The translations under genes and the position numbers were made by a program. DNA of 64,000 bases, taken from NCBI GenBank assembly GCA_000091205.1, contig AP006495.2; one strand, given 5' to 3'. The stretch is from Cyanidioschyzon merolae. Its lineage: Eukaryota. Positions 7,143 to 61,705 of the stretch are shown here, piece by piece. The notes below the pieces were generated by a model. That model worked only from the letters and a program-made list of their open reading frames with translations, was not told where the DNA came from and did no database searches. The first letter of the stretch is position 1, and every line of letters starts with the position of its first letter.

Positions 7143-10100
7143 ATGCTAGGTAGCTCCGGTGCAAGTATCCAGCGGACCAGGGAGGTTCAGTCCCCAAAAC
7201 GTCGTGGTGACGTTCGATCTTTTGGTCATGCAAAGGCGGCAGGTGTCAGGTCACCACAGGTGACGGGATTCGTCCCGGAACTATGTCCACGCTGGGGCGC
7301 ATGCCCTGCTAGGCAGACTCGTCGCAGACACACAGCAGCGCACTGTGTCGTGCGTCCAAGCAGCGTCTATCCGCGAGCAGTGTGCTCCTTCGTGAGCAGC
7401 AGCTGGAGGCTCGCACTGAAGCACATCGAGACAGCGTCAACTGGGAGCGTCCAGCGACGCTTGCTCGGCCTACAAGCGTCGTCAGACTCGAAGGACTCGA
7501 CTGGGGCACCAACGGCGCGTTTGGAGCCGGTTTTTCAGACCGCAGAACACGTTGCTGCGCACTATGCGGTGGAGATTGAAGCTGGACTCAGTACGAGCCG
7601 TGCTCGCGAACTCTTGCGCATTCATGGACCGAACGCGCTTCCCGAACCGGAACCACAGACGCTCGTTCAACGAGTGCTCAAACAGTTTGACGATCGTCTG
7701 GTGCAGATCCTTCTGGTCGCTGCCGGCATATCCTTTACGTTGGCAGCAACAGCAAAGGAGCGAACGGCTTCCGCGTTCCTAGAGCCTGTCATTATTCTAA
7801 CGATTCTGCTCTTGAACGCTGGTATCGGGGCGATCCTCGAGTCGCGAGCAGACGAGTCCATCAGGGCCATGCGAGCCTATATGAGCGAGGAGGCTGTGGT
7901 TGTCAGGGATCAGGGCGCTAGGTCGTGTATACCAGCGCGGGAGCTCGTGCCTGGTGACGTCATTGAACTACGAGCCGGTGACCTGGTGCCAGCGGATGCT
8001 CGTGTCGTGCGGTTACTCTCGAATACGCTCCAAGTCGACGAGTCGATTCTCACCGGTGAGTCCCTTGCAGTGGACAAATACGTTGAGGCAATGGAGCAGG
8101 CGAAAGATGCACGAGGCACCGGTCGACTTCCGTACCAAGAGCAGCGCAATATGTTGTTCACAGGCTCCGTGTTGACCAGGGGTCGCTGCCTCGCTATCGT
8201 GGTCGCAACTGGCGAAAATACTGCTGTCGGTACAATCCGTGGCCAACTCGTACGGAGAAGCAGCAGCAGCAGCAGCAGCAGCGCTAGTCGCAAGAATGGT
8301 GAAACGGAGTTAGCCACGGAAGCGACTACCGAAACCCCGCTGGTGGAGCAGATGAATCGCCTGGGAGACCTGCTCACCAACCTTGTGCTGGGTATTTGTG
8401 CAGCGGTATTCGCGCTCAATCTTGTACAGGAAATCCAACAAGTACCCCTTGCCATGATCATTTCACAACAACAGGTCGATTTAAGTCGTATTCTCGAGCA
8501 GGTCATCGAATCCTTCAAATTCTCGGTGGCTCTGGCTGTAGCTGCAGTTCCCGAGGGTCTGCCTGCTGTAATCACCACCTGCCTAGCCCTCGGAACGCAG
8601 CGCATGTCGAAGCGCAACGTACTTATCCGCTCCCTGCCCTGCATTGAGACACTCGGCTGCACATCTGTGATTTGTTCGGATAAGACCGGGACACTGACCC
8701 AGAATCGCATGCGCGTCGTGGAACTCGTACCGGTACATGATTCGCTCAAGGAGGCGCTCTCGCTGGTGCTTGCACTCTGTTCAGAGGCCACCCTGGATGG
8801 ACGAGGTGATCCGACGGAGCTCGCATTGCTGCGAGCCGGCGAAGAGCTGCGACCCTCCGACAGTAACCGAGCATTCTGGGAGTCGCATGCACGAATCCTG
8901 CAGGTCAATGAGTTCGATCGTGTTCGGAAACGCATGAGCGTCGTCGTTACCTGCAGCGTGCCGGTTTTGTCGACGGCGAATACGAACGATCACAAAAGCA
9001 CCTACACGTATTCACTAGTCAAGGGCGCACCAGAGACTGTTCTGGAACAGTGCTCCTTCGTTGAGCCAGACGCTGTAGCATACTGGTCAGAGCAGACGAG
9101 GGAACGCTCACGTAGCGGTCTTCGCTGTATTGCACTGGCTATCCGAGAATGCACCAGCGACGCTGCACAGGACAGTGCCGAGAAACAGCTCACGTTCCTG
9201 GGACTCGCTGCCCTGCAGGATCCTCCGCGTCCAGGAGTCCGTGAAGCGATCGCTCGCTGTCGACAAGCAGGTATTCGGGTAGTGATGATCACGGGGGATC
9301 ACGCCTTGACGGCATCTGCAATTGCCGCTCAAGTCGGTATCCTCGATACCTCCATGATCGCAGATGCCGCAGCGGAGAAGAGCGGTACCTTGACGCCTAC
9401 AGTGGTGCTCGGTGCGGACCTCGAGAGCAACCGTTACACCCCAGACCAAGTGGCAGCAGCGCGAGTGTTTGCACGCGTCGAACCGAAGCACAAGCTACAG
9501 ATCGTCGAGACGCTGCAGCGGACCCGCAGCGAAGTCGTCGCCATGACCGGGGACGGTGTCAACGATGCACCGGCGTTGGCTGCTGCGGACGTCGGCGTCG
9601 CCATGGGAACCGGAACCCAGGTTGCAAAGGCCGCTGCCGACATGGTCATTGTCGACGATAATTTCGCTACGATCGTCTCAGCTGTGGAAGAGGGCCGCTC
9701 CATCTACGCCAATATGCGGCAGTTCATCCGCTATCTCCTCAGCAGCAATATTGGTGAGGTGATTGCCGTCCTGGTGAGCTCGCTTTGGCTGCACGTTCCG
9801 GAGATTCTGTCACCGGCGCAGTTGCTCTGGGTGAACCTCATTACCGACGGTTTACCTGCCATCGCGTTGAGTTTCAACCCGACGGATCCGGAGGCCATGC
9901 AACGGCCGCCTCGTCGGCGCGATGAACCCTTCCTACGTACCCAGGGTGGACTCGGTGGTGACCTTGCCCGTTATCTGGCGATTGGTACATACGTTGGTCT
10001 CGCTTGCGTCTTCGGATACCGTGGATTCATAGACAACACCGTCCAAGCGCGCTCCGTGGCCATGTCAGTGCTTGTCACTGCCGAGATGGCCAATGCCTTG

Positions 10101-14000: not shown

Positions 14001-15916
14001 GACAAAAACTGCTCTCGAGCTGCTCCTGGTGAGACCCTTTTTTTCCGATTCAAGCCAGTCGAAGGCGACATCTCTGTTGCCAAACACCGTTTTTGAAGCT
14101 CACGGATCCATCGACGAGTCGTCCGCATCCATGACACTGTCATCCGACGAATTGCTCTTCGGAAAGTCATTCTCTTCCTGAACCATTCCTGAGCTGGTGT
14201 CTCTCAGCTATGCTTGTTTGCGGGAGGGAGCGAAAATGCGCGCCTCGGTCCGTGAACATCGCCCTTGGGAGCCGCTAAAGAGATTGATGCTCAGGAATCG
14301 TGGAGATATATGTAGGAGAAACAGAGTTCTGGAACAAGTTCCACTCAGTGCGTCGAAGGAGATGCTTTAAACGCTCCAGACAGCACATGAGACTCTGTTC
14401 GATTCGCTTGCAGTTTCGGTTGTATGGAGGCAAGAGTCAGGCATTCGCCAACTTGTGCGATAACTTGCAAAAAAGCAAATGGTCGATATCTCGAGTTGTC
14501 ATGCTGTAGTCAATGGCACTGGACGTGCAGTAACGCGCGAGCGCTGCACTCCGATTCCTTTGACGACAGCGTACATGGAGTGCAGGAATCGGCGCTTTCA
14601 GATTTCCTTCCATGAGTTCAGGACGACACCATTGCATCACGGGCGCGGGTGCATGTTGAATCAGGTACAGATGGAGAGCGTGAAACGGATCCGAATGCAC
14701 GAGATGGTGCTCACTAAGCTGAGCGGACGCCAGCTGACGGGGCGATCCCAGGTCCAAGGCTTGCTGTGAGGTGACGCTACCAGCAAACCTGCACACAAGC
14801 ACGTTCTACACCGAGACCCAAAACGCCTCGACCATCATCCGGGGATATCTTTTGCGTCCGAAGCATCCAGCGGCCATATGTCGAGCAAGCCTTCGAGGGT
14901 ATCGTTTGGTGATCAGTGTGGGCATTTTGCTGAAACGCGGAAGGCATGCGATGAAGAAAATCAGTAACCAGGAGAGAGGGGAATGGATTCTTTCGGGAGC
15001 GAGGCACTGGTATTGGACGGTCAGCGATCGAGCACGATTGATCACTATATACATCCGCAACGATTTTCCTTGGCAACTAGTGAACATTAGCAATGTTCAA
15101 TTACTCGATATCACCGTGCATATGCTCGACGCGAACGGCCGTACGATCGCCCCAGACTGCACTGTTACCGTACGACGTTCGTGGTAGCGTCTCCCGCGCT
15201 TTCGCAAGCGATCAGATTTCGCGAGACACCTACCGGGAAGCCTGATCCAGCCTCTACATCATGCCTGGATTCTGGACTGGGGATGGAGGAACGAGGACGC
15301 ATCACCATGTGCGGGGCGCTCCATACTCAACAAACTGGAAGCTTTTGCGCATCCGTCGGAATCTGGTCCGATGCACTGATCCAGTACACACTAAAATAAA
15401 GCAGTGACGATGGAGGGCGGTGCCTTTGACACCGTAAAGCTCGCTTGACAGCGACCGCATGGACAAGAGGGTGAAGTGCGCGGTTCCGCGGCGCGCTCGC
15501 CACGGGAAATGGCGCCCCAAGTGAAAAAGCGGTCAGAACACGTGCTCATACAAGGTCGAATGCGTTGGTTGCTCCCTCGGTTACCGACCAAAACCGCTTA
15601 CCACGATGGCACTTTGCATATCGATGATGTTTATCCAACGTTAGTGACAATGACGCAGTGCAGCGAATCATCTAGAGAATATATCTCTGGTTCCAGTGCA
15701 GACACGCCATCATGAATGCATTCAGTGATGCCCGTCACAATGCGCTTCGCTGGGAACACGCTATCCCCATTCGATGAAGCGCGGTACGGCAGGCCACGTA
15801 GACCTTGAAAACCCTTGCATTTGCTTGGCGCTGCAACACGAATCCGTTCAGGCATCGGAAAAGTGAACCGCTGCAATTCGGCATAGCATGCAGACCTTGA
15901 ACGCTGTCACGAGACG

Positions 15917-17589: not shown

Positions 17590-17982
17590 GTGACAAAGAA
17601 GAAAAAGATGATGATTCGTGTTGGTAGGCGATTCAACGTGTACGCACGACGGAACGATGACGAGACTATGGTGGCACAGAGGGAACGAGTGCTAGGAATC
17701 CTTACAAGGATGACTTCAAGCATCCTCAATGCACGCAGTGAGCTCGTGAACCGCGACTTGAACACTGCTATCAATACCAGACGATTTTCGGTGCTGAACA
17801 CGAAACCCCAAGAGCTGACGCGAGCCAACTTCGTGGAGCAGCCTCTGATACTCAAAATGTGTAAGGAGAAGCTGGAGCCGATAGCAGGCGGCCGGTCAAA
17901 AAATGGTTGGGTGACGTCTGCGGGTGGGTATTCATATACCCTACATGATCGTGCGAAAACTTTTGTTTCAGTGACCACATAG
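17590..17982 (+). CDS. In-frame internally deleted Fanzor/TnpB-like ORF (130 aa): about 35 N-terminal residues fused to the C-terminal RuvC-III segment
   Basis: MMIRVGRRFNV resembles MVAKAFVLRQF, the N-terminus of the 49166 ORF upstream of the full copy. ERVLGIL...VNRDLNTAINTRRFSVLNTKPQELTRANFVEQPL aligns to aa about 570-630 of the full copy. The stop TAG is at 17980-17982. Confidence 0.5.
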   Translation: MTKKKKMMIRVGRRFNVYARRNDDETMVAQRERVLGILTRMTSSILNARSELVNRDLNTAINTRRFSVLNTKPQELTRANFVEQPLILKMCKEKLEPIAGGRSKNGWVTSAGGYSYTLHDRAKTFVSVTT

Positions 17983-18028: not shown

Positions 18029-18952
18029 TTGTCGCGCTTGCTCGAGCGAGATTTCGCGCTTGCGAACGACACCAATGCTACCTGCCTGGCCGTGCTCGGT
18101 TTCATGAGCTCAACGAAAGACCAGAACAGCGTGGGTGAGTTAGAAGACTTGGCCTTATGGGCAGTGGAAGCTCTTACGGTGGCGCTTGTCCCTCCTGACG
18201 ACACGCTATGCTGTCTCGATTCGCGAGCGTTCGGGCTCCTCGGTACGCCTGGAGAAACTGGTTTTCAACACGCGAGCATCATCGAGCAGTTCCGAGACGA
18301 CCTCTCCCGAAATAATAGACCGCACTTGGTCACGAGTGATGCCGGCGTTGAAAACCTCGCTGAACGCAGAGTCGATGGCTGTGTCACTTTCGGCGCCTTA
18401 GACAGCGCTTTCGCCGACGAGGCCTCCTGCGAGTCCGTGCTACGAACAGTCGCCCGCCTGCTGTGCTCAGGTGGAAAGTTCTTTGGTCTCTGTGTGGACA
18501 GCGCAAGCCTATGGACACCACTGCGGAAAGCTTACGAGGCACGACAGACTGGGCGGGCTGCTCCTGCACCCAGCGTCGATATTCGGCTACCGTACCGGGC
18601 AAGCGACGCGAGCTTCTGTATCGCCATGGATCCGGATGCGAATGCACTCTTTCGCTCCGCATACGGACACGTGTTTACGCTGGGCGTGGGCACAAGAACA
18701 AAAGCCTCGTCTCGAAAGTGCTATCTTGTGAACTTTGGAGAACTGATTCGAGTCGCATCACGCGTAGGTCTCGAGTACCGCGAGGCCTTGAACTTGAAGG
18801 ATTTTTGGGAAGAATTTCATCGCCCATTACAGTATTGTGAGGAGATGCGTAGCTTTTACCGACGCTTCCAAGGTCAAAAATTTCGACCAAGTCCAGCGGC
18901 GCTCGAGGGCGCTGCGTATTTCTCCGTATTTGTCTTTGAAGCAGTGTCCTGA
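18029..18952 (+). CDS. Element-borne class I methyltransferase-like protein resembling the C-terminal two-thirds of mRNA cap guanine-N7 methyltransferase (RNMT/Pox_MCEL family); the SAM-binding motif I was not recognised
   Basis: 307-aa intact ORF. The block [39 protein letters not shown] resembles the RNMT block [71 protein letters not shown] resembles [32 protein letters not shown], and [11 protein letters not shown] resembles SIYLVFAFEK. Degenerate paralogous copies of this ORF follow every Fanzor 3' fragment (copies A, C and E). Confidence 0.45.
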   Translation: [307 protein letters not shown]

Positions 18953-24849: not shown

Positions 24850-26300
24850 CGCCGAAGCATCCAGCACACTGTGACACACCCGGGCACATTTCGTGGTCCT
24901 TCCGCAGGTCCTTCACCTTTGGGGAAGGTCCTCACCTAAACGCATAAAATAGTGCATTCATTTTCAGGAAATAAAAAATCGATGGTATGAGTTTGGATGC
25001 ACACTTCAGAACAAAGAGATGGAGAAGAGCCAGCGGAGCGCTTCGGTGATAGAAAAGCACCGAGAGCTGACACAGAACCAAATGACACAGAGTGAACGAG
25101 TTCTAGGAATCCTTGCATTGGTGGGTTCACGCAGCGACGATAAACGCATGGAGTTCGTGATACGAGACCTCAACGCTGCCATCAATATCCGACGATATGC
25201 AGAGCTGAAGACGAAACCCGCAGAGCTGTAACGATCCAACTTTATGAGGCGACCTATTAGGATCGAAGTTTGCAACGAGAAACTGAAACCGACAACAAGC
25301 AGCTGATCGAAAACGACTGGGTGGCGTCTGCACGTGGATACGCATCTACCCTACATAATCGTGCGACAATTTTTGTTCCACTGACCACATACCATGTCTG
25401 AATAACTTTTTGGCGTCCTCCTGTGACGACTCGTCGGCAAGCTCACGCAGAAATTTCACTGAACTTGTCAAGTCAAATACTCGATTCCATTTGAAAGACA
25501 ATGCCTTCTCACTTGGTTGCTATCGATGGAACCACGGTCGACTTCAGTTCGACAAATCCCGGGAGATACGCACGCAGTGGCTGTCTTCTCTTGTATTTGC
25601 GTGGAAAAGGTCTGGGGCGCGGACTCTAGTCACAGCGGTGATCTCTTCGGGTGCAGCGTGCGTCACGACTTCGCATGGGCGGAGCGTAGACGAATCGAAT
25701 TTTCTCGACTTGATCTCCAGCATGGATTACCATACCGGCGCTCGTTTCATCATGGACAAGCTTGCGTTCCACAAATCCTCTTTCGAATGGGACAGCGTGT
25801 GCTTGGTCGTCCTACGGATATTGAGTTCGCCACGGGCATCGCCCTAAACAAGTCCATGATCGTTGGGTCCGGCAACTGGCTGGCGCGGAAACCTTCCAGG
25901 ACGTCGCGGGGAGCCTTCTGGATCCGTCACGGGCCTGTGCCGGGCGATGCAGCGAGCGGTCACGCACCGCAGGGCGCCAATCTGAGGACGACAAATGGAG
26001 AATACACTCGAATGCCTGACTACCGACGAGTGGCACTGCTACGAAAGGCGCATCCGGGCTCTATACAAACAAGCGAAAAACGGCTGGCGAGGCGTCGATC
26101 GCAGCATTCGCCTGTGCATGGAAAACATGAAAAACATTCGAAAACAGCGTGATCAGGAGTTTAGCGCTGCCACGAACATCTTGCGACTGCTGAAAAAAGA
26201 GCTGGAAGCACAGGAGAGACTGGGGCATTTAAAACCTGAAAAAAGATACCCTCAAAGGGAACAGTTGGAAAAAGTCTGCAAAGGCTGGCATTGATAAAAC
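24850..26300 (+). mobile_element. Internally deleted Fanzor-family element (copy C): 5' segment, then frameshifted Fanzor 3' fragment, then degenerate R1/methyltransferase-like region
   Basis: 24985-25391 aligns at nucleotide and protein level to aa about 536-650 of the full copy. 25393-25810 aligns to 1140-1560 and 18000-18300. Confidence 0.55.
24985..25391 (+). pseudogene. Fanzor/TnpB-like C-terminal fragment (RuvC-III: IRDLNAAINIRR), frameshifted
   Basis: GCTLQNKEMEKSQRSASVIEKHRELTQNQMTQSERVLGIL...MEFVIRDLNAAINIRRYAELKTKPAEL aligns to the full copy's [40 protein letters not shown]...[16 protein letters not shown]. The downstream frame is shifted (RSNFMRRPIRIEVCNEKLKP). Confidence 0.6.
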
Positions 26301-38855: not shown

Positions 38856-41131
38856 GCGCATAAGCGGTAGGTCGATGCCGGGCACATCCGGCACGCTGCA
38901 TCGCGGGTTGCATGCCCTTCGCATACCGCTCCAGGCTTGATCAGGGGCGATAACAGACGCTCCAGCGATGTATCCTTTGCGTGCTGCCTGATACGGAAAA
39001 CGACATCTTCAAGCAGCGCATGACGCTCAGACATGTTCTTGATTGAAGCTTTGACGAGAAGCGAAAACCTTTGGAACGATCCGCTTTCAATCCAAGGCCG
39101 TAAGGATATCCGATCTCGTACGATCCATACAGGCAAGGATCTGAATGGAGCGCATTTTCCGTTCGTTTATTTTCAACGGATCGCTCGAGGCGCTCCCGGG
39201 TCACGCAATGCGATGGTGTGTGCTGGCGCTGCTGCTGGGCGTTCGGCGTTGCTGTGCGTTTACGAGTTATCTGCGCCCCCACGGTGTGCATGTGATGAAC
39301 GCCCGAGACGAATGAGGCCGCCCACGCTGCTGCCGGGCTGCGTCAGCAAGCATCCCCAGTTTGGTACGATCAAGTGCCGGGACATCCATGCAGTCCTGCA
39401 TGTTACGCGTGCGGCCGTCTTATCGCCTGAGCTGGCGCACGTAAGCGCACTCGCAACGCAAGTAGCTCTGGGTAGCGTTCTGAGGCCTAGACGCAGCGTG
39501 CTCGAGATGTTGCACATCCGAATGCCGTTCGGGAGATGCGATACCGGCGCTGTGGACGGAACCCCGGTCCGCTATGGAGCATGCGGCAGCGACGGACATC
39601 GATACCTGCACTGGATAAAATATCCAGTATGTTCTCTGCATGCTTACCTGACGTGCATTGACTTCATCTCAGATACTTGTCTGCGCTGTGCATTGTCTGC
39701 TGTAAGCTACGACCTGGGTTTGTTCAACGCAGCGCAGGCATGCACGAACATACATGATGGTATTTGCATGTCGATTTTGCAAGGTTGCTTGACCTGCCAG
39801 CTCTGAACTCAACCGTAGCGCACTCCACGCTGCGAGATGCGTTTATGACCGCACCCTGTCCTTTGATCTGCCAAACGTTCCCAGACACGAAAAGCAACCC
39901 AGGCATGCTTCATCTCTCATGACTGTACGTCGATAGATGATGCACATACAATACTCGTATACACGGTGTCCGCTCAGGTGGAAGACGCTGCGGGTCTCTG
40001 CTCGTGGCGTTGCCGCAGCGGTCGGAGAGTGTCGATCGCGCGTTCCTGCATCCCCGCCGGCGCTACTTGATACACGATGTACACTGACAGAATGCGCTGA
40101 TATCAAGAGCGCAATCGGGGGTGCCTGTTCAGTGTGTAAAGGTTGTATAAAAAACGCGATGTGCGCTGTCGACTGGAGAGAACGTTGCGTGCGATTGTAA
40201 CTACAGCGCAGCATTCTCGACATTCACTACGTTCAAAAAAAGACAGAAAAAAAGCACTTGCTTTTTGCAACGGTCCCGAAAGAACACAAACGAACCAGCA
40301 ACCAGCGACTCGATACCAATTTCGTTCCAGCTTCACGGTGAACATTGAACGGGGGCAAACGTCTCCGTATTTTCGAACGTTGATCCGCATGATGGAAGGT
40401 CGCACGACCCCGACGTGTCCGGCGGGCTCGTGCCTCACGCCTCCCTCAGTTACCGGGTGATGTGGCGACACCCGAGCGACTCATCTGCAACGATGTTTTT
40501 GTTTTTAGATGAGAAAGCGGTAGGCTGCATGCTAGGCGTTGCCCTGGTTGCAGTACGCTCCTGGCAGATCGCTTCGCGCTACCGCAAGCAGTGCGTCTCT
40601 CTCCGCAGCTTGCTGGCTCCCAGTATCATAAAGAGTCCCGATTCCGTATTGAATAAAAGACACTTCGAGCCAACGTCCTCAGTCGTATGCCAATCCCGTT
40701 CTATGCTCGTGCTGCACCCGCACCAGCTGTATAGGGGTTATTCAGGGGACAGCAAGGCAGGTACTCGCTGCGCGATAGAACGCACGAAACGACCAGTACA
40801 ACCTATATCACATATAGGTTATGGAACTTGAGCGTATGGCACAGCATGATGGACAATTCCATGAACCCTACTATCCATCCCGTGTCTGGGTTCCGTGGTC
40901 AATGGAAACATTTCGTCAAACATGAGAGAAAAAGCCGGTAGGCCTCAGCGTGCCACCAAGTCCCGTTTTTGAAATCCCTCATCGGGCGATCGCGCCAAAT
41001 CGATCGTACGTTGCGCGTTGGTGCGCTCTTGCGCTGTGCTGCGGCACGCTGCAGTACGCACGCTCTGGTGAACTGCTCTGTCGTGCTCGATATCGCAACG
41101 ATTGTGTTGACGGCACAACAAAGGTCTCTGA

Positions 41132-42559: not shown

Positions 42560-44065
42560 TTATGCATCCTCCTCGTCACTGGTCACTAGCATTCGACGTC
42601 TGCTGCTCGACGCAGTCGCAGATACTCCGGATGCGGCGGGTGCTTGCGGTTCAGCGGATACGGCGGTCTCTGAGGACGGGCTCGCTGCCACATTGTCACC
42701 GGCACCAGCACGACTGCGCTGCTGGAGGTGGACTGCTGCGCCCGGGGCAGCGGCATCCAGCGGCGATGTGCCGGGGTGCTCGGAGGTCGACTCTGGCGTC
42801 TCGTGCTCGACCAGTGCCTCATCGGATGCGCTCTCCGCGGAGTTCATACTGTGGTCATCCTCGTGGTCATCGTCCAACATAGCCTCCAGCCGCTCCAGCT
42901 CAGCGTCTTCGTCACGAATCGTGCGTTGGCGAACCCCGAATCGACGATCATCCAACAACTCCATGGCAGAGTCGGCATCGGAAGCCTCTTCTCCGGAGTC
43001 ATCGTCCCGGGCGAGAGTCCCTGTCGAGCCCGTATGCCCTGCGTCGCGACGCTGTTCGCCAGCGAGCGGGTCCACGCCTAACTGTTGCGGTGCGAGCAAC
43101 TCATTCTGAGCGAGTCTCTGTCCTCGCCGACGACGTCGCGCTTCGATTCGTTGCTCGGCTTTTCGACGCTGATTCTCGAAATCAAGCAGCGTCTTCTCTT
43201 CGCTTTCTGGGGCCCGGTCGAGCGCTGCCACCTGCACGCGGCGGCTACGCCCCGTCTCTGCGAAAGATCTCGAGGCAAGGTCGCCCGCTCGAAGCTCCTT
43301 TTCGAGACCCGCTCCTAACTTTGCGGTCGACGGCACCCGAGCGCCTGCTAGTAGTTGTTGTACCACCGCCGGGTCAACGTTGGTTTTGAAATGGCCTTTG
43401 ATTTCGCCATTGTAGTTGACCATACGCTGCGGATCGCCGCAGATAACATGCTCGCGGCCTGGTATCCCCTGTTCTACAATCAGCTCGAGAGCTACCCGGT
43501 CGCCTATGTGCAGCGTACGGGACCCGTCGCTCCATTCGATGATGCGAGCGTTCGATTCCCACTCACCGGTAGTGGGATTCCGTCGCCAGCGGATCAAGGC
43601 GGGTTTCTTGGACCGGTTTCGCCACGGGCCAGCGGGTGCATCAGTACGAGAGTCTGTACGAGCATGGCTCTGGCTTTCCCTATTCTCCAGCGCTTCGATT
43701 CCAATAAACTTAAAAGGCAGCCGCAGCAGGTAATAGTCGGGGGTGTGGCGCCGGAGTCCACCTGCACCTGCCCCGCCTTGAACGGGAGCAGCTCCGCCGG
43801 GGCTCCCGGCCACGCAATGTTCAGCCCTGCTTTCAGCGGCCTCGTAGTCGGCGTCTTTAATCAAGTGAGCTTTTGGTTCAAGCGGTGTCCTGTTCGGAGC
43901 TCCGAAACCTCGCCCCGGTTCCCGGGCAGCCGTCTCGACCGCGAAGCGCGACTGGGCGCCCACGTCAACCGCATCCTCTACGGACTCGTCGCTGCTTGAG
44001 TCCCCGAAAATCTCCTGAAGATCACGGGACCACTTGGACTCGGTCATCGGTACACGAGTTCCCAA
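42560..44065 (-). CDS. LEO1: RNA polymerase II-associated Paf1-complex subunit Leo1
   Basis: Leo1 core PDYYLLRLPFKFIGIEALENR ... ESNARIIEWSDGSRTLHIGDRVALEL (compare [23 protein letters not shown]), with acidic/Ser-rich tails. The antisense ORF 42450-43109 is a mirror artefact. Confidence 0.75.
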   Translation of the reverse strand: MGTRVPMTESKWSRDLQEIFGDSSSDESVEDAVDVGAQSRFAVETAAREPGRGFGAPNRTPLEPKAHLIKDADYEAAESRAEHCVAGSPGGAAPVQGGAGAGGLRRHTPDYYLLRLPFKFIGIEALENRESQSHARTDSRTDAPAGPWRNRSKKPALIRWRRNPTTGEWESNARIIEWSDGSRTLHIGDRVALELIVEQGIPGREHVICGDPQRMVNYNGEIKGHFKTNVDPAVVQQLLAGARVPSTAKLGAGLEKELRAGDLASRSFAETGRSRRVQVAALDRAPESEEKTLLDFENQRRKAEQRIEARRRRRGQRLAQNELLAPQQLGVDPLAGEQRRDAGHTGSTGTLARDDDSGEEASDADSAMELLDDRRFGVRQRTIRDEDAELERLEAMLDDDHEDDHSMNSAESASDEALVEHETPESTSEHPGTSPLDAAAPGAAVHLQQRSRAGAGDNVAASPSSETAVSAEPQAPAASGVSATASSSRRRMLVTSDEEDA

Positions 44066-45049: not shown

Positions 45050-46864
45050 TTACAGGGGAATATTTCCATGTTTTTTCGGGGGCCATGGCTCCCGTAACGC
45101 CGCTGTCTCTTTGCTCGCTAGGAGGCTTAGCCCGTGTATGAGCCATCGACGCGTCAGTCTTGGTCGCACGACAGCATCGACGTAGCCACGCTGGAGTGCA
45201 ACCGAAACCGAGGATTCCTCGCTCGCTTCAGTGTCACCCGAAGTTTCGAGCGCATCCGTCGACGCAACTCGCCTGCGAAGGATCTGACTCGCTGCAGCCC
45301 TACCCATGACAGCGATATGGGCACAGGGCCAAGTTGCGTTCAGGTCGCCACGCAGGTGCTTGCTTGCCATGACACAGTACGCGCCACCGTATGCCTTACG
45401 CAAAATAATGGTCAGTTTCGGCACGGTTGCCTCCGTGTACGCATACAGCAACTTGGAGCCGTGTCGGATGATGCCGCCATGCTCTTGCTGCGTTCCGGGA
45501 AGGAAGCCTGGTACGTCAACCAGCGTCACGATCGGTATGCCGAATGCATCTGCAAAGCGCACAAACCGTGCTGCTTTGACGGCAGCGTCGGAATCGATTG
45601 CACCTGCTATGCACAGCGGTTGGTTGGCAATCAATGCCACACTGCGACCGTTCAGTCGAGCAAATGCAGTTAGCATGTTTGGAGCGAAATCGGTTTGAAT
45701 TTCTAGAAATTCTTCATCATCGACGAGGCGCATCAGAACATCCCGCATGTCGTATGGCGTATGCGCATCCGAGGGTACCAGTCGATCGAGCACGGGTTCT
45801 TCGCGGTCGCTGGGATCCTCGGTGACAACAACTTGGGGAGCGGGAACACGCGCATTCTGCGGCAGGTACGACAGCAGCTCACGGGCGAGTTGTATCACGG
45901 CAATATCGTCGTCGGCGTCTAAATGGGCAACGCCCGAGATACGACAGTGAACTGCGGCACCGCCAAGCGCCTCATCAGTTGTTTGTTCGCCTAGGGCAGC
46001 GTTCGTTACGCTGGGCCCCGTCACGAACATTCGTGCATGTCGTCTGCTCATGAGCACAAAGTCCGTGAGTGCTGGTGAGTACACTGCACCACCTGCACAC
46101 GGCCCGAGAATCAGGGAAAGCTGCGGGATGTATCCCGAAGCCAACACATTGCGTTTGAAGACCTCTGCGTAGCCTGCGAGCGAGCGCACCCCTTCCTGGA
46201 TGCGCGCTCCTCCGGAATCACAGAGAGCAACAACTGGCGCGCCGACCTCGATGGCCTTGTCGATGACCTTGCAGATCTTTGCGGCGTTGGCTTCGGAAAG
46301 AGAGCCACCAGCAACGGTGAAGTCCTGGCTGTAAACGAACACAGGTCGACCGTGAATCCGTCCAAAGCCCGACACAACGCCGTCGCCAGGAGTGCGATGT
46401 TTTCCAAGCGGATCCGAAGACGATGCATGGAGGGACTCTCTTGAACTGACCAGTCGATCAAGCTCTTGAAAAGAGCCACGATCCAGTAAAAGGTACAACC
46501 GCTCCCGAGCGGTTAGCTTTCCCTGGGCGTGCTGGCGGCGCACTCGAGCCCGGCCGCCTCCGCAAAGAGCGAACACTTCTTCCTGGTACGTCCGCTCGCC
46601 AACACCCAAGACAGACGCAAGTCCGCTCGCTACTATCTGGTCCGTGGCACCGGCTTCCGTCGAGGCAGAGTCCAGGTCCCTGTTCGTGGTTACGGAGCCG
46701 TTTACTGAACCACCCGTTCCAACGTCGTGCGGGTGTTCAGCGAAAGCGCCCCCGCCACCTGTACTGGACCTGGAGCACGCAGTGGACAGCCAAACGCGGA
46801 ACCGCTGTCGTACGGTTCTCCATGTGACGCTCTGCAGTCGCTGTGGCCAGGAGGTGTCTCGCAT
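45050..46864 (-). CDS. PCCB: Propionyl-CoA carboxylase beta chain / carboxyltransferase (PCCB-type) with an Arg-rich N-terminal presequence
   Basis: ALCGGGRARVRRQHAQGKLTARERLYLLLDRGSFQELD matches the PCCB N-region, and carboxyltransferase domains follow to the stop at 45050. The proposed start is M at 46864 (MRDTSWPQRLQSVTWRTVRQRFRVW). The listed ORF continues upstream in frame into the Fanzor sequence. Confidence 0.8.
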   Translation of the reverse strand: MRDTSWPQRLQSVTWRTVRQRFRVWLSTACSRSSTGGGGAFAEHPHDVGTGGSVNGSVTTNRDLDSASTEAGATDQIVASGLASVLGVGERTYQEEVFALCGGGRARVRRQHAQGKLTARERLYLLLDRGSFQELDRLVSSRESLHASSSDPLGKHRTPGDGVVSGFGRIHGRPVFVYSQDFTVAGGSLSEANAAKICKVIDKAIEVGAPVVALCDSGGARIQEGVRSLAGYAEVFKRNVLASGYIPQLSLILGPCAGGAVYSPALTDFVLMSRRHARMFVTGPSVTNAALGEQTTDEALGGAAVHCRISGVAHLDADDDIAVIQLARELLSYLPQNARVPAPQVVVTEDPSDREEPVLDRLVPSDAHTPYDMRDVLMRLVDDEEFLEIQTDFAPNMLTAFARLNGRSVALIANQPLCIAGAIDSDAAVKAARFVRFADAFGIPIVTLVDVPGFLPGTQQEHGGIIRHGSKLLYAYTEATVPKLTIILRKAYGGAYCVMASKHLRGDLNATWPCAHIAVMGRAAASQILRRRVASTDALETSGDTEASEESSVSVALQRGYVDAVVRPRLTRRWLIHGLSLLASKETAALREPWPPKKHGNIPL

Positions 46865-46962
46865 GGCGCACACCGCTGAACGCCGTTCTAAAGTAGAACG
46901 TCGTCGGCGGTGTACAGTAGTAGCGACCGGTGCGCCTTGGACAACAAGTCGCCTACTGACGT

Positions 46963-48913
46963 GCAGACGCTTCCTAGGCTTTTTCGACCGGCCGCCTACT
47001 ACTGCTTCCAATTGTGTCTCATATAGTAAAACCTTAAGAGGTTGTCCAACAAAATTCTCTCGTGTCATCTCTGGAGGTCTGTTCTCCAACACCGCACATC
47101 TCCTTATATTGATGGCGGTAATAAAATCTCGGTTCACAAAATCCATCCGTTTCGTGCCGTTGGGAGTTGTACTTACTAATGCAAGCAGTCCACGAACTTT
47201 CGCTCTCCTTTCCATTTGCTCTTCCGTCAGCTGTCTATACTTTGCTATATCCTCAGGGCTCCTCTGGCACTTTTCCATCTCGACTCTCTGAAGTGTTAAC
47301 CCCTGTTCATGGTGTGTATACGATGTTCGAAACTCATCTACAGGTATCGTAACGAAACGCCTTGCACACTCCTTGTACATTCTTGTCGTTGGAGCTGGTG
47401 TAGTGCCTTTCTTGGGCACCCATCGTCCTGCTCCGTCCGCTACGACGAGCCTCTGACTTTCCTCCTCCTTCAGGGCGCTCAACTCATTCAAAAAATTCGC
47501 GAACGCCCGCTGCCTCCCACCGTATAGATTCATTCGCAGACGAGCCCACCGGGGCTTGGTATACTCCTCCCATAGCGCATCCCAGTGCGCCATGCGAACT
47601 TCCATGAATTTCCGGACAGCTTCAAAGTCCGCTCCTCGGCTCGTCACCTTACTCAAAGCTTCCAGGTGCTCTTTCATTCCTGGATTCCAAGTCTCGATTT
47701 TCTTCCTCGCATTCATGATTCCCGATTCTCGATAGTATATTGCTCTCGAGAACTTCAAAAGACGCATGTCTTTCTGACGCATGCCGCCGTCAGTGCCATC
47801 TTCCAAACGCTTGGGTACTGCGATGGTGATGATATTTGTGTTTCCGAGGTCCGCGCCAACGACAAAGTCGTTATCATGCACTTTCTGCGCGGCAGGATCC
47901 CCCTCCTTCTCATCTTTATGCATCGCCGCGCCAACGACAAAGTCGTTAGCTTGCACCTCCTGCACCACAGGATCCGCTTCCTTCCCATCTTCATCCTTCA
48001 TCACGTCAACGACAAGGTCGTTATCCTGCACCTCCTGCATCACAGCATCCGCCTCCTTCTTTTCTTCATGCTTCGTCACGGGCGCAGCCGAGGGCGGAAC
48101 TGGACGATCTTTCTTCAACCGCCGACAGAGTACACACGTGGCTACTCCATCGGTTTCGATCAACCCAGTGAATACCTTCTTCGTGCTCACTTTGAGACGT
48201 TTGAAATCGAAGCTGCTCATCCAGTACGTCTCCCGGTTTCCGCCGGTGAAGTCCTCCCTGCTTACATCGAACTCCGGACAGATATCCCTCATGATGCCGT
48301 AAAGGACGCCGGAGTCGATAGTCACAAAATGTGACTTGATCTTGCACATTGGAACCACGTTGAATCGCTTCCGCATTAGGACAGCCTTCCGTCTCTCCCA
48401 CTCTTCCTTTGTCTCTTCACTCAGCTTCATCTCCGCTTTGCGTTCGAGCTCTCGGTCCAGAAACACAAAATAGCGCAGGACGAGGCGATCGTATCTTTCC
48501 CTATCTTTTTTCAGCTCTGATATCTTGTCTGTTGGATTCGCCAGGCCCAGTATCGCACGATGCTCTTTAATAACCGCACGGATTACGGAATCCTCATTCA
48601 TGCTCTCGTTTGAAACCTTCTTCTCGACAAATTTGATCTCATCTTCATGCTTGCGATCTTTCATGATGCCATTGATAATCGCCCATTTTCCATTACGAGA
48701 GATGCCCGGGTATAGCGCAAACACTGCGCATATCATGAAACGTTCCAGGTTCATTGTAAAATGGTTCTTCACATTCGTGAGGTACTTCTTCGCCCCGAAG
48801 GTGTAAATATCCCAGTCAACCTTGTTTAGAGTACCCTCGAATCTGTAAAAGGGATGTTTTTCGTGGAGGGCGTGCACTCGCTCATCACTCGTCGAACATT
48901 TTTCCTGTGCCAT
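46963..48913 (-). CDS. Fanzor1-like (eukaryotic TnpB/OMEGA-type) RuvC nuclease, main ORF (aa about 1-650 of the 1287-aa read-through ORF)
   Basis: Has RuvC-I ([19 protein letters not shown], compare GIDLG) and a TnpB-like segment [16 protein letters not shown] (compare VDPAYTSQTCSVCG, Cys ligands lost). RuvC-III is [18 protein letters not shown] (compare DRDVNAAINI). At the canonical RuvC-II position the sequence reads LVVADG (E replaced by A). Confidence 0.7.
47857..48055 (-). repeat. Three in-frame tandem repeats of about 69 bp inside the Fanzor ORF, immediately N-terminal to RuvC-I
   Basis: [53 protein letters not shown] and [18 protein letters not shown]. Also visible as repeats on the plus strand at 47781-48302. 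Confidence 0.7.
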
Positions 48914-49166
48914 GCATGAAGTGGCGGTTGAATGTCTTGTTGAAAAATTCTCCCGGAACCTCGACTGTTTTGATGCCCATCACGTTGTCGTACATCTCCC
49001 ACGCCAAATGCATTATTCCTGAAGAAGCCTTTGTTATACTCATGGAGTAGCACGCGCCACGTTTTCTGATGGCCTCCCATGACTTTTGCTTGGAGGGATC
49101 CTTGAATTGGCGTAGAACAAATGCTTTCGCCACCATTTCTTCGTACTGTTGTCTTTCAAGTTGCAT
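48885..49166 (-). CDS. Probable N-terminal segment (about 90 aa) of the Fanzor protein, separated from the main ORF by a 1-nt frame shift in an A5 run
   Basis: The ORF MQLERQQYEEMVAKAFVLRQF... ends [11 protein letters not shown] overlapping the main ATG (ggaaaaatg). Removing one A gives a continuous ...[14 protein letters not shown]... Its N-terminus is conserved in the mini-ORF of copy B. Confidence 0.45.
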   Translation of the reverse strand: MQLERQQYEEMVAKAFVLRQFKDPSKQKSWEAIRKRGACYSMSITKASSGIMHLAWEMYDNVMGIKTVEVPGEFFNKTFNRHFMHGTGKMFDE

Positions 49167-50149
49167 TTAGCGTCTGATTTCCAGTCTAAGGTCCCCCGTC
49201 TTTTCATGATTCTCTTGGCTTGGCGCTGTTTTTCTGGAAGCCGGCGACACTGGGCCTCCAGCATCGTCGACTTGCTTTGACATAACTTTTTTATTTTGTT
49301 CTGAAAAAGAACGCACTTTGAACGCCTCTCTTATAAAGTGCGAAAAAACACTCGAATACACTCACTTGAGCGTTGAAACCCCATTGAAATGAAAGACTGT
49401 CATATTGTGCGACTTCAGCACAGATCCAACCAGCACGTGAGACCCACACGTCAACGTATGGTCAGCATAGCGTTTCCATTCAACGCCGTGATACGCATTG
49501 TGTCGTGCATGCCAGATACGGAGCTGCGCGTATCGACCGCGCCATATAGAACAAACAACAGAAACTCACGACTACATACCAGTAAGATAACGATTTTTAC
49601 CCCCCCTCTGCAATGGACGTTAAAAGGGGGAGATGTTTCTATCATGTCGAATGTTTACCTCCTCGGCGGAAGGCCCCGCGAGCCCGACGAGTTTACCAGG
49701 CTCGTGCTTCATGCTCCCCCAGTGGCAGTTGCTATAATGAGACCCGAGCAACTCGTCCGCAATGTAATTTGTTCTTGGACTTGGATCGAGTAGCCTGCGT
49801 CTGGGCGTCGCGTTTGTCGTACTGGATTCCTCATATATCGCTTCACGCTTTTTGCAGGCAATTCCTTTGTCTCCACAAATTGCAGTCTCCCAGCATGATA
49901 ATGAATCCCGAACTCATGTCATTCGTAGCGTTCCTCGATCCGTCGCCCCCCCGTCGTATGGGAAATCCGTTCTTTCTCCATGATGCATCTGCACCAACGG
50001 TATAGCTGTTATTGCTGGTGCTCACGGCAGATAGTCGGCACACGATACAACGCACGAAACGACCAGTATATCCGAGAGGATATATAAGTAATGGAACTTG
50101 AAAGTAGGTTGCAGCAGCATTATGGACGCTTTCCCGAAAACTAATCCCC

Positions 50150-50278
50150 ATCCATCCATGCATCTATCTATCTACCTATCTATCTGTCTATCCATGCATG
50201 CATCTACCTATCTATCTGTCTATCCATGCATGCATCTATCTATCTATCTATCTATCTATCTGTCTATCTGTCCATCTG
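50150..50278. repeat. Compound (TCTA)n-based microsatellite with about 3 higher-order units of 32-36 bp (ccatgcatgcatctacctatctatctgtctat)
   Basis: Read directly at 50150-50278. A GC-only run (gccgccgccaccgccgcctccgccgccggcg) follows at about 50400-50440. Confidence 0.85.
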
Positions 50279-50539
50279 GAATCCATGGTCAATGTAAACG
50301 TCTTGGAATTGAAAAAAACAACACCAGCGGCGTCGTCGCTGCACGAATTCGCTGCCGTGACGCCGTCCAGCTGGCGACCTTTGTTTGCCGATCTTCTGCG
50401 GCCGCCGCCACCGCCGCCTCCGCCGCCGGCGACGACGAAGTGACGCGCCGCGGACCCGCAGCCGCCCGCGAGCCTCGTCGCCCGCACATTGCCGTGTCGT
50501 TTCGGCAAGTAGTGCGATATTCTTATTGTGCAGTAACGG

Positions 50540-51991
50540 ATGCCGCCGCGTGAAACGAACGATCATCAAGCAGCACTGGAGTCAGCGAACGCTCATTATC
50601 CTGTCCAAGCGCATTGCGTCCAAGATATGGAAGAAGAAGAACACGATCCTAGTTTGACTTACAAAGAGGGCGTTCCGGGCCCGACCTTGTCGTTTATCTG
50701 GGGCTTGAAAGTACCGCCGGGGCGCGCTGTCGAGCACAGAGTCGAGGACGGCGAGTACGTCGTGATCTCGTCGGCCTCGCTCGGTATCAAGAAACCCAAG
50801 GGGAAACGATCTGTTTTAGTGATGGAAGACCTAGACGTGCCGAAGCGCGGTTTTTCGGACGATGAGGACTCTAGCGCGGATAGCGACGAAGTGGCTTCGG
50901 AATCTGAATCAAGTAGCGGATCGGATTCTGGATCTGGTAGTTCTGAAGCAGATGAAGCCATGGTGAACGGTATCGATGAAGACGCATCAGATTCAGAGGA
51001 TGATGAGGGCGATTCGCAGGAGTCTAGCCCCGAGAGCTCGGCCACTGGTACCGGTTCCGAAGAGTCTGCCGACGAAGCGCTCGTCTCCTCCGAGGACGAG
51101 AGCGCCTCGGAAGTATCCGATGATGAAGATGATTCTTTTCCCGACACACCAGTGATACGTAGCATCCCGGTGTGCGTGCTCCTTCCAGGAAAAGTGGAGA
51201 GCCAGTCGCTCAACCTAGAGATTGTTGGACCACGTGTACTTCATTTTCGCACGTATGGCAAGGATACCATCTACATCTCTGGACACACCGAAATCGAGAT
51301 AGACGAATATGACTCGGAAACCGATGCTGAATACGATGACGATGTGGAAATGAGCTACGAAGGTTCCGAGAGCGATGACGGGATTGCAGAGTATTCGGCA
51401 TCCGGGTCGAGCTCGGCATCGGACGATGAGCCTCTGCCGTCACCGCCGCTCTCTGGGCACAGGAGAAGCGTCCGAATTACTGAAATTATGGAGAGTGAGC
51501 AAGCTGATCGAGTGAAACATGCGGACGCGGATCGCACAGCACATCGTACCAGAGCACGATCAGGAGCGACTGCCGCAGCAACTGATGCTGGGGCGTTGAC
51601 AAGCGGTGGCGCTCAAACGTCAACACGCAAAGCCGAACAGAAGAATCGCAAAGAAGGCGCATCATCGGCTGGCGACGCGAAAACAGGGCTGTCTTCGTCT
51701 GCAGCGGACGGGACGAGCAAACGGGGCACAACTCCTCGCAGCGAATCCTCTACAGACCAGAGCCATGCAGGCACCAAGCACGTGCGTTTTCCAGAAACTT
51801 TGGAGCCAGAGGAGCGCGGGAAGAAGCGGAGCGCATCGGAGCGGAGTAGCAACCCAGCAGCAGCTGCGGCTGCTTCGAGCGTTGCCGCTGCAAATGCCCT
51901 GTCTGGTAGCGTCTCCTGTTCCACGTGCGGCAAATCGTTCAAAATGGCAAGTGCTCTTGAGCAACATATGAAAGCGAAACATGCTGCGTAG
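50540..51991 (+). CDS. Acidic nucleoplasmin-like / histone-chaperone-like protein with a C-terminal C2H2 zinc finger
   Basis: N-terminal block LSFIWGLKVPPGRAVEHRVEDGEYVVISSASLG resembles the nucleoplasmin/FKBP-N fold. Long D/E/S-rich tracts follow, and the C-terminus has CSTCGKSFKMASALEQHMKAKH. The start may be M30 (50627). Confidence 0.45.
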   Translation: MPPRETNDHQAALESANAHYPVQAHCVQDMEEEEHDPSLTYKEGVPGPTLSFIWGLKVPPGRAVEHRVEDGEYVVISSASLGIKKPKGKRSVLVMEDLDVPKRGFSDDEDSSADSDEVASESESSSGSDSGSGSSEADEAMVNGIDEDASDSEDDEGDSQESSPESSATGTGSEESADEALVSSEDESASEVSDDEDDSFPDTPVIRSIPVCVLLPGKVESQSLNLEIVGPRVLHFRTYGKDTIYISGHTEIEIDEYDSETDAEYDDDVEMSYEGSESDDGIAEYSASGSSSASDDEPLPSPPLSGHRRSVRITEIMESEQADRVKHADADRTAHRTRARSGATAAATDAGALTSGGAQTSTRKAEQKNRKEGASSAGDAKTGLSSSAADGTSKRGTTPRSESSTDQSHAGTKHVRFPETLEPEERGKKRSASERSSNPAAAAAASSVAAANALSGSVSCSTCGKSFKMASALEQHMKAKHAA

Positions 51992-60735: not shown

Positions 60736-61705
60736 ACCAAACCGGTACTAGCGACTCTAAGCGTTGCAGCGGGTCGCAGGCCGGGTGCCGTCGTTCACTC
60801 AAAAAACGAAACAACCCGAGTTGCCTCGCCTGCAGAAAGCGTCCAACGCAGTCCGTGGCGAGTTTCTGCTCCCCGTTAGCGCGAGAAGACTGCGCGGAGC
60901 ACGCCCTGCGGCATACAGCGCCTCGTGGCGTCGTCGATGCCGCGCCAAACACACACGCATGCGCCGGCGCGTCTGTGATGATCCTGCAGCGCCAGTTTCG
61001 ATTCTCGTGTGCTGGCATCCGATTCTTGCTGTTTTTCTGGAATGAAACAGCGTCGACGTTGCGCATGGATGCCAGATGGCTGAATGCGTATTGAAATAAA
61101 TGAAACCGCTCATTATTATTCACGTTACTTCCGAGTTCCATGACCAGTTCTCGGATGTAACTGTCGTTATATACTTTTTATCGTGTGCCGAGTTCGTGCT
61201 TGGAACACCTGCCGTAGCGCCTAAACCGCTGGTGCCGATGCATCATAACGTGTGACCTGTTTTGGCACGCAAATGAGAGCGTCAGCTCGAGATGTCCTTC
61301 ATCCGACACATGGGAACAGCGACAGCATGCTGGGGAACGAAGCAGCGAGCTCATTGGGGTATTGTGAGATCGATGGATCGAGTCCGAGAGCTGCGCACGT
61401 CTCGCTGCTGCTGTTGGTAACCGTGAGAGAGGTCACGAGTGCGCTGGTGCGGGAACCCTGGGTGTGTATGTTTCGCTCTTTACACGGATACCTCTGTGCA
61501 TGAAACCGGAACAAGGCCCAAGGGTGCGTTAGAGCTATCGATCATCACTGGGAAGTTCGCTACAATGCGCTCTCGATGCACATATCGGAATGAAATGGAA
61601 CTGGTTGACCAAACTAGGTCAGGTATGCACACGAAGGTCTGGGCGTGTGCCCGTGATGATCAAGACCAGGTTTAGCGTGCTTTTCGGCTCTCTTGACTCC
61701 GGATT

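Follow-up and report, generated by a model that had tools for sequence, protein, structure and literature searches.

CMe-1A is a Fanzor1 transposon family of the nearly intron-free red alga Cyanidioschyzon merolae, present in about 150 copies which are each about 80% identical to a consensus of about 3 kb (Bao & Jurka 2013, Mobile DNA 4:12; PMC3627910). According to that description the family possesses no terminal inverted repeats, target duplications are left undetermined, and the 5′ 635 bp are common to the non-autonomous element TE-N2_CMe (PMC3627910). Among the Fanzor systems, the omega-RNAs of SpuFz reach 14-15 nt beyond the conserved end of the element as guide (Saito et al. 2023, PMC10432273). 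Here we describe a CMe-1A copy in a 64,000-nt stretch of C. merolae contig AP006495.2 (assembly GCA_000091205.1), hereafter the window, where a single open reading frame (ORF) of 1287 codons (45050..48913, minus strand) joins a Fanzor gene to PCCB, the gene for the beta subunit of propionyl-CoA carboxylase. With a probability of roughly 85% we regard this locus as a decayed CMe-1A copy lying beside PCCB, the two frames having been joined by the accident of a lost stop codon and PCCB being a separate gene. Coordinates are those of the window, and features are on the minus strand unless another strand is given.

The open reading frame and PCCB

The 1287-codon frame (45050..48913) is open throughout, as a sequence-only reading of the window had proposed, and comprises a Fanzor part and a complete PCCB. 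Residues 684-1287 are identical at 604/604 positions to C. merolae 10D protein XP_005537031.1 / BAM80995.1, annotated as [quoted passage not shown]; because of this identity the window is assigned to C. merolae 10D, and M684 (46864), which the earlier reading had also chosen, is the annotated start. PCCB is thus an independent host gene of 604 codons plus stop (45050..46864), supported both by its identity to BAM80995.1 and by Pfam. A complete carboxyltransferase domain is found at ORF residues 793-1270 (PF01039, Carboxyl_trans; E=2.8e-164; profile positions 1-483 of 493), and the protein is 57-74% identical to PCCB proteins of algae, fungi and bacteria. The closest named orthologues, from Cyanidiococcus yangmingshanensis (74%, 590 amino acids) and Cyanidium caldarium (64%, 577 amino acids), have N-terminal extensions similar in length to that of C. 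merolae and free of transposon-like sequence. From M684 the N-terminus is, by eye, Arg-rich and poor in acidic residues, and it is annotated as that of a precursor; M684 is the last in-frame Met ahead of the part that has homologues in other carboxyltransferase beta subunits. A mitochondrial presequence must sit at the N-terminus of its protein. PCCB is a separate gene, translated from M684.

The residues of the listed ORF can be divided at three points. Residues 1-658 are those of the Fanzor, the natural C-terminus being residue 658 and not 650 as first read; residues 659-678 are the translated non-coding tail of the element, that is, its last 61 nt; residues 679-683 are a translated 14-nt spacer; and residues 684-1287, by identity to the annotated protein, are PCCB. 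The linker, which had been estimated at about 100 residues, is therefore only 25 residues long (659-683).

Identity of the Fanzor part

Single-sequence searches with the first 683 residues matched no Pfam family and no PDB structure. The Fanzor half has 54 homologues of about 70% identity in hot-spring metagenomes, and a profile built from 12 family members matches SpuFz1 (8GKH; E=1.4e-8) over profile positions 278-614, the RuvC region. By alignment, the RuvC D/E/D motifs GADLG, VDEFRTS and NRDF of the window correspond to IDP, DEYKTS and NRD of SpuFz1. The top six Foldseek matches were all Fanzor1 structures (SpuFz, PpFz, GtFz; E=2e-9 to 8e-7), followed by one at E=0.3; the query was an AlphaFold model of a full-length relative, poor in quality (predicted local distance difference test, 58.5; predicted template modelling score, 0.34) and used for the ranking of matches, not for geometry. 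Judged by profile and fold, the N-terminal half is a Fanzor gene, as first proposed; it is of the Fanzor1 type and a relative of the TnpB-like RuvC nucleases, with a predicted nuclease activity.

The main Fanzor1 reading frame, defined by these homologues and matches, extends over 46940..48913 and includes the RuvC-like motifs GADLGNTNI (47831-47857) and VDEFRTS (47321-47341) and a third such motif (47105-47137). Upstream of the first of these are three tandem 75-nt (25-amino-acid) repeats (47851..48075). The repeat is acidic and its unit number varies between elements, the full-length relative P0001 having one unit more.

Extent and ends of the CMe-1A copy

The copy spans 46879..50318, about 3440 bp including a microsatellite, from a T-run at the left end (TTTTTTTCAAT..CAAGACGTTTACATTGACCATGG) to the right-end core ...GTTCTACTTTAGAACGGCGTT. 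It belongs to CMe-1A, copies being 78-83% identical in the 3′ part. No inverted repeat connects its two ends. A scan of metagenome contigs yielded 263 related stretches, as befits a multi-copy family; 80 loci contained relatives, and clustering of these left 37 unique right-end flanks, of which 35 were long enough for analysis. The host proteins on contigs carrying copies are C. merolae proteins.

When the 3′ region of the window is aligned to independent copies, homology breaks off abruptly at 46879, following the conserved ...CACTACTGTACAC...CGTCGTTCGACTTTCGAACGGCGTT, and the flanks beyond are unrelated. L003, a 98.5% identical copy at another site, departs from the window precisely at this base. 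L048 and L004 run colinearly into PCCB and therefore represent the same locus in environmental relatives. It follows from the end of homology at 46879 that the right-end core lies 14 nt before the PCCB ATG. The sequence-only reading had placed the end of the element near ggcggccggtcgaaaaa (46980), about 100 nt from the real end, which independent copies put at 46879 after ...GAACGGCGTT. That reading was correct in that the 3′ sequence departs from derivative copies within the window just after ggcggccggtcgaaaaa, but the point of departure is not an element end. The fragments concerned (17733-17921 and 24987-25335) resemble each other past the divergence point and belong to another subfamily; they diverge near 46980 because this subfamily has a different tail of about 100 nt. 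Being of another subfamily, the fragments at 17.7 kb and 25 kb were left out when the end of the window element was defined.

The left end, set by comparison with other copies, is at about 50318, behind a (GATA/GATG)n microsatellite (50160..50275, no strand assigned) which has expanded inside the left-end region of the element and masks its end from simple alignment. This microsatellite arose from a GGATGGATGG motif, and L035 (2330-2640), an orthologous metagenome contig, has about 310 bp more of it. Among five exactly placed left ends, neither a target-site duplication nor a conserved motif was found beside the end. The 5′ module of the element (49617..50318) is equivalent to TE-N2_CMe, an element of about 70 copies in C. 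merolae, and also occurs solo. Copies or fragments of it without a Fanzor gene are found in the window at 40279-40917 and 61064-61245, as well as in L016, L064 and others.

Degenerate fragments of the second Fanzor subfamily lie on the plus strand of the window at 14336-14766, 17662-17921 and 24986-25348. Two of them have co-oriented ORFs about 100-200 nt farther on, 18029-18952 (methyltransferase-like by eye) and 25517-26152.

Loss of the stop codon and decay of the Fanzor gene

Of the 34 copies with a stop in range, 11 have it at the commonest position in the family, where a TAG inside the conserved GTCTAGGGCG stands 61 nt short of the right end and yields a C-terminus like ...RRLHVSWRRFV. 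In the window the corresponding codon is CAA (Q659; 46937..46939), in a context, GTCCAAGGCG, common to the window, L003, L004 and L048. The read-through frame exists because the family TAG became CAA in the subfamily to which the window copy belongs. The remaining 61 nt contain no stop in the same frame, either in the window copy or in the consensus of the 35-copy alignment; together with the 14-nt spacer they amount to 75 stop-free nt, and the Fanzor frame therefore enters PCCB in phase. In L003, which has undergone the same stop loss, translation continues through 38 nt of unrelated flanking sequence before it meets a stop. For a copy without its stop, the computed chance that 25 codons are stop-free and in phase is about 0.1, and the read-through is in itself unremarkable. 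Some metagenome gene calls in the RNA methyltransferase and RCC1 clusters exceed the annotated length by exactly 61 amino acids (687 vs 626 and 593 vs 532); at other loci too, therefore, open frames run from the element 3′ end into the host gene.

The Fanzor frame is also broken at its other end. The N-terminal 93 codons of the gene (48885..49166) are in a different frame from the main ORF, the frameshift being located at an A-run near 48915. A tblastn search with P0001, the full-length relative, puts residues 8-107 in one frame and 104-752 in another, and thus the shift between residues 104 and 107. This frameshift is common to the orthologous L035 and L047, and paralogue L003 is shifted at the same place with another A-run length. 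Conserved positions have been substituted as well (AYGAG to ADGAG, ELGCT to EQGLT, and FNAAINI to FITAINI). With a frameshift, CAA in place of the stop and substituted residues, the window copy is not an intact, translatable Fanzor gene. A gene fusion would be expected to show a junction under selection and two intact halves; here the Fanzor half is broken, and the stop loss is also found at an unrelated locus. A functional Fanzor-PCCB fusion is very unlikely because the Fanzor has decayed, and a fusion would also bury the presequence. The 1287-codon “chimera”, for which a fusion transcript had been one proposal, is an accident of decay and no fusion gene.

Insertion upstream of PCCB

The sequence-only reading had offered insertion of a Fanzor transposon in the 5′ region of PCCB or its truncation there, and had suggested comparison with related species lacking the element. 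That comparison favours insertion. In Cyanidiococcus (L083) an NPL-domain gene is divergent from PCCB, which is followed by Leo1; the order is syntenic with the window and the element is missing, the NPL-PCCB intergenic region (about 990 bp) showing no nucleotide or protein similarity to it. Truncation is not supported, as the right end is complete and in register with other copies. In the window the divergent neighbour is an NPL-like (nucleoplasmin-like) gene (50540..51991, plus strand), 44% identical to the L083 NPL-domain gene, and a Leo1-like gene downstream of PCCB (42560..44065), 47% identical to L083 Leo1, serves as the second synteny anchor. The NPL-like ATG (50540) and the left end of the element are separated by 221 nt, the right end and the PCCB ATG by 14 nt, so that the intergenic region before insertion measured about 235 bp. 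The element-free intergenic region of L083 itself contains a tandem duplication of about 115 bp (…CTGATCGATAAAGGATTTCCTTTTGAGATCATCCATCCCCTGTCGAATCC…; approximately 7140-7330).

No empty allele was found among the sampled C. merolae-like sequences, all of which carry the insertion. P0184/L084 had been considered as an empty-site allele on account of its odd N-terminus and was rejected, since it has the same junction at a noisy contig end. The junction of …GAACGGCGTT with CAGCGGTGTGCGCCATG is the same to the base in the window, L048, L004 and the noisy L084, and the read-through is also present in eight metagenome gene calls; because both recur in independent contigs and gene calls, we conclude that no assembly error is involved. 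PCCB differs from environmental contig L048 (997-2811) at 4/1815 nt (0.22%), two of the changes being synonymous and two not, and has therefore remained intact since the insertion. The adjoining element (46879-47860) differs from L048 1-982 at 29/982 nt (3.0%). This disparity, seen in the aligned sequences, suggests either a mosaic assembly driven by the repeat or gene conversion among copies.

Position of the family relative to host start codons

The arrangement at PCCB is typical of the CMe-1A family. Among the 35 unique flanks, the nearest long ORF at the right end has the orientation of the element in 24 flanks and the opposite one in 9. Distances to the co-oriented ATGs are +3, 14, 15, 64, 65, 67, 68, 81, 90, 93, 103, 107, 112 and more nt. 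A co-oriented ATG is found within 200 nt in 19/35 flanks vs 13.5% of random intergenic points (p=1.4e-8), and within 100 nt in ten of 35 vs 7.7% (p=2e-4), the expectation having been derived from 8402 random intergenic points on the same contigs. Ten of the co-oriented ORFs possess unrelated Pfam domains: rRNA methyltransferase, bicarbonate/anion transporter, WD40, RCC1, FtsZ, ATP synthase alpha/beta, HAD phosphatase, signal peptide peptidase, polyprenyl synthase and phosphoglucomutase. Right ends 3-200 nt from a co-oriented annotated host start were noted at L041, L045, L057, L052, L073, L054, L018, L043, L066 and L011. In 8/8 exact look-ups the length predicted from the first ATG equalled that of the annotated C. 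merolae 10D protein; examples are FtsZ2-1 (503 amino acids), geranylgeranyl pyrophosphate (GGPP) synthase (388), phosphoserine phosphatase (437) and phosphoglucomutase (724).

Beyond the left end, at a distance of a few hundred nt, there is in most cases a divergent host gene whose start faces the element (roughly ten cases vs one, in about 14 loci). With gene starts on both sides, the elements thus mostly occupy short divergent promoter regions. The ORFs divergent from left ends were considered as a second transposon gene and rejected, as they are unrelated host genes save for one inverted Fanzor copy and duplicated loci. In 4/4 exactly placed copies the right end is nearer its gene than the left (14 vs 221, 185 vs 657, 93 vs 227 and 81 vs 181 nt). 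CMe-1A as a Fanzor element and PCCB as a gene are already known; the docking of right ends at co-oriented starts is not described in the portions of the literature covered here. The locus is a clear example, in a very compact genome, of a Fanzor family whose presumed RNA-encoding right end lies against host start codons.

The element 3′ end and the spacer

The conserved, structured 3′ end of the element (46879..47095) is a candidate omega-RNA scaffold on the basis of conservation and fold, and its location corresponds to that of the omega-RNAs of Fanzor and TnpB. Mean column identity over 35 independent copies is 81%, and conservation persists beyond the stop codon. The 217-nt segment folds with a minimum free energy of -81.9 kcal/mol (z=-4.56). 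Its recurrent folds include a long-range helix in which CAGTAGTAGG pairs with CTACTACTG and, 7 nt short of the right end, a terminal hairpin, GTTCGA-CTT-TCGAAC, which in the window is GTTCTA-CTT-TAGAAC. The proposed helices are 89% paired vs 33-58% in slid controls, and seven pairs change on both sides; the helices were chosen as recurrent in per-sequence folds, so that these pair counts are biased toward structure.

Between the right-end core and the PCCB ATG lies the 14-nt spacer CAGCGGTGTGCGCC (46865..46878), at the position where an omega-RNA guide would be found. By analogy with SpuFz, the guide of the window copy would consist of 14-16 nt that cover the leader of PCCB and its start codon. 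In the 37 right-end flanks, the first 9-12 nt after the core GGCGTT are A-poor (positions 1-9 being A-depleted) and G/T-rich. GGTG occurs in 16/37 flanks vs 8% background, and an 8-mer in the first 16 nt is common to both members in 18 pairs of independent flanks vs 0-2 pairs in later windows. The flanks examined include 46865-46878 in the window, L052 (5858-5870), L056, L082, L054, L057, L002, L072 and L011. The post-core motifs GTTGGTGTG, CGGTGTGCGC and CGGATCGAC are each common to independent insertion sites, and CGGTGTGCGC, that of the window, is found again after the copy upstream of an RCC1 gene. The G/T-rich stretch may represent a degenerate element tail, a preference for certain targets or a guide-like segment that was inherited; should it belong to the element, the transposon adjoins the PCCB ATG almost directly.

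PCCB expression and alternative explanations

In the account which best explains the locus, a CMe-1A copy (50318..46879, minus strand) was inserted in the short divergent promoter region between the NPL-like gene and PCCB. The element is co-oriented with PCCB, with its right end 14 nt upstream of the PCCB ATG. The copy is decayed, its N-terminal 93 codons being out of frame and its TAG replaced by CAA, and the frame accidentally enters PCCB and gives rise to the 1287-codon ORF. The original PCCB promoter would now be about 3.4 kb distant. Because only 14 nt precede M684, the only usable start, the PCCB mRNA would have to start in, or cross, the element 3′ end. There is no ATG in the last 143 nt of the window copy or in the spacer, and the first start codon in a transcript that begins there would thus be that of PCCB. 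That the last 140 nt are kept ATG-free by selection was considered and set aside as uninformative, given that 14/35 copies have an extra ATG and the rest are explained by shared ancestry. Transcription of PCCB from within the element, which the sequence-only reading had raised, is plausible, and the idea gains interest from the repetition of this geometry at many housekeeping genes.

A wider proposal, tentative and in our estimation doubtful, is that CMe-1A docks in one polarity, a few to about 100 nt upstream of host starts such as those of PCCB, FtsZ2-1, GGPP synthase, phosphoglucomutase, phosphoserine phosphatase and an anion transporter, and that its omega-RNA-like 3′ end provides dozens of housekeeping genes with a promoter, a 5′ leader or both. 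The G/T-rich 10-14 nt would go back either to a target motif or to a guide-like segment that was inherited, the guides would read host leaders and start codons, and host expression and transposon RNA would be coupled. It is rather unlikely, somewhat more so than this proposal, that the insertion is neutral, with the PCCB core promoter in or downstream of the 14-nt spacer and the proximity to start codons reflecting integration into open promoter chromatin, as in many DNA transposons. The occurrence of most copies in divergent promoter regions on both sides fits such a preference, and the PCCB ORF is intact and conserved; against it, 14 nt (and 3, 15 or 64-112 nt elsewhere) would by ordinary expectation be too short for a promoter and leader, and an indifferent insertion sits poorly with right ends that are nearer the gene in all four copies with both ends exact. 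A promoter displaced by 3.4 kb might also have silenced PCCB and turned it into a pseudogene. This we consider improbable: the ORF has all of its 604 codons and an entire domain, C. merolae 10D and diverged environmental populations share the insertion and yet PCCB differs at only 4/1815 nt, and clearly essential genes (FtsZ2-1, an ATP synthase subunit, phosphoglucomutase) are in the same arrangement.

A genuine Fanzor-PCCB fusion protein, or an obligate fusion transcript, is very improbable. The 1287-codon open frame and the same read-through in several environmental assemblies would be its evidence; the frame, however, is due to the TAG loss in the subfamily, it runs into unrelated DNA in L003, the computed chance of an in-phase, stop-free run is about 0.1, the Fanzor N-terminus is out of frame, the reference annotation begins at M684, and no such extension is present in the orthologues with which PCCB was compared (513-626 amino acids; Cyanidiococcus, Cyanidium and others). 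As general knowledge, the mitochondrial presequence must be N-terminal. Hardly credible, finally, is a sequencing or assembly artefact in which the stop or spacer was lost by error or through a repeat-driven misjoin. Such a misjoin might be feared of a repeat reported in about 150 copies, and the element part of the metagenome contigs does look mosaic (3% divergence vs 0.2% in PCCB); but the window, L048, L004 and the noisy L084 have an identical junction, and the same CAA is present in the window, L048, L004, paralogue L003 and eight gene calls from different samples.

Several points weigh against our interpretation of a decayed copy which nevertheless lends its 3′ end to PCCB. The position at which the PCCB mRNA starts is inferred, and nothing usable was found in the literature on C. 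merolae PCCB expression. In 14/35 copies the last 140 nt contain an additional ATG, so that the 3′ end is not a uniformly clean leader. As the G/T-rich 10-14 nt could be either element or target sequence, the insertion point is uncertain by up to 14 nt; left-end boundaries are exact in only four to five copies. The metagenome copies were taken to be from C. merolae-like genomes on the basis of identical host proteins. As for the 3′ end, conservation is high and covariation sparse, RNAalifold alone on the 257-column alignment gave three pairs, and an Rfam search gave no match. Because of these two negative results, support for structure is only moderate; the 3′ end is a presumed omega-RNA region, and its hairpins could instead be DNA signals for transposition.

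Comparison with known systems

In intron-poor eukaryotes, mechanical ORF lists can join a decayed transposon gene to a host gene, and the present case is a caution in this respect. The docking geometry would imply a present role of element sequence in the expression of host genes. If this is true, C. merolae, which is genetically tractable, allows homologous recombination and is rich in RNA-seq data, would be a natural system for the in vivo roles of Fanzor omega-RNAs and guides, and for asking how a transposon reported at about 150 copies persists in a 16-Mb genome with essential genes unharmed.

Transposons enriched at the 5′ ends of genes include the P element, Mutator and mPing, and outward-reading insertion sequences provide adjacent genes with promoters. 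CMe-1A resembles them in that the downstream gene is cut off from its own promoter and presumably relies on element sequence to be expressed. Compared to these promoter-proximal transposons, CMe-1A is unusual in its 3-112 nt proximity at many housekeeping genes and in its consistent polarity; its promoter activity is putative.

With respect to the CMe-1A family as described in 2013, the window copy agrees in organism, size (about 3 kb), multi-copy occurrence at about 80% identity, lack of terminal inverted repeats, lack of a clear target-site duplication, a 5′ end of about 635 bp as in TE-N2_CMe, and the presence of a Fanzor1 protein only. Nothing sets it apart except that it is a decayed member, with a frameshift and a lost stop. 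That description left the ends undefined, and the present analysis places the right-end core at …GAACGGCGTT, followed by the G/T-rich tail.

The best profile and fold match to the CMe-1A Fanzor is SpuFz1 (PDB 8GKH, 9CEU), with the RuvC D/E/D motifs aligned, and the reach of SpuFz RNA into the variable flank, 14-15 nt, agrees with the 14-nt PCCB spacer (PMC10432273). The two proteins are only about 15% identical, and that of CMe-1A contains internal 25-amino-acid tandem repeats. The SpuFz1 element possesses terminal inverted repeats (PMC10432273) and CMe-1A does not; the candidate scaffold of CMe-1A, known here from its sequence, is about 200 nt long and overlaps the 3′ end of the ORF, which sets it apart from SpuFz1. 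With the bacterial IS200/IS605-type TnpB (OMEGA) elements CMe-1A shares a TnpB-like RuvC nuclease, the lack of inverted repeats and target duplications, a subterminal hairpin near the right end and a guide RNA expected across the right-end boundary. Unlike them, it shows no TnpA in the element, resides in a eukaryotic host, is far larger and carries about 1 kb of 5′ non-coding sequence.

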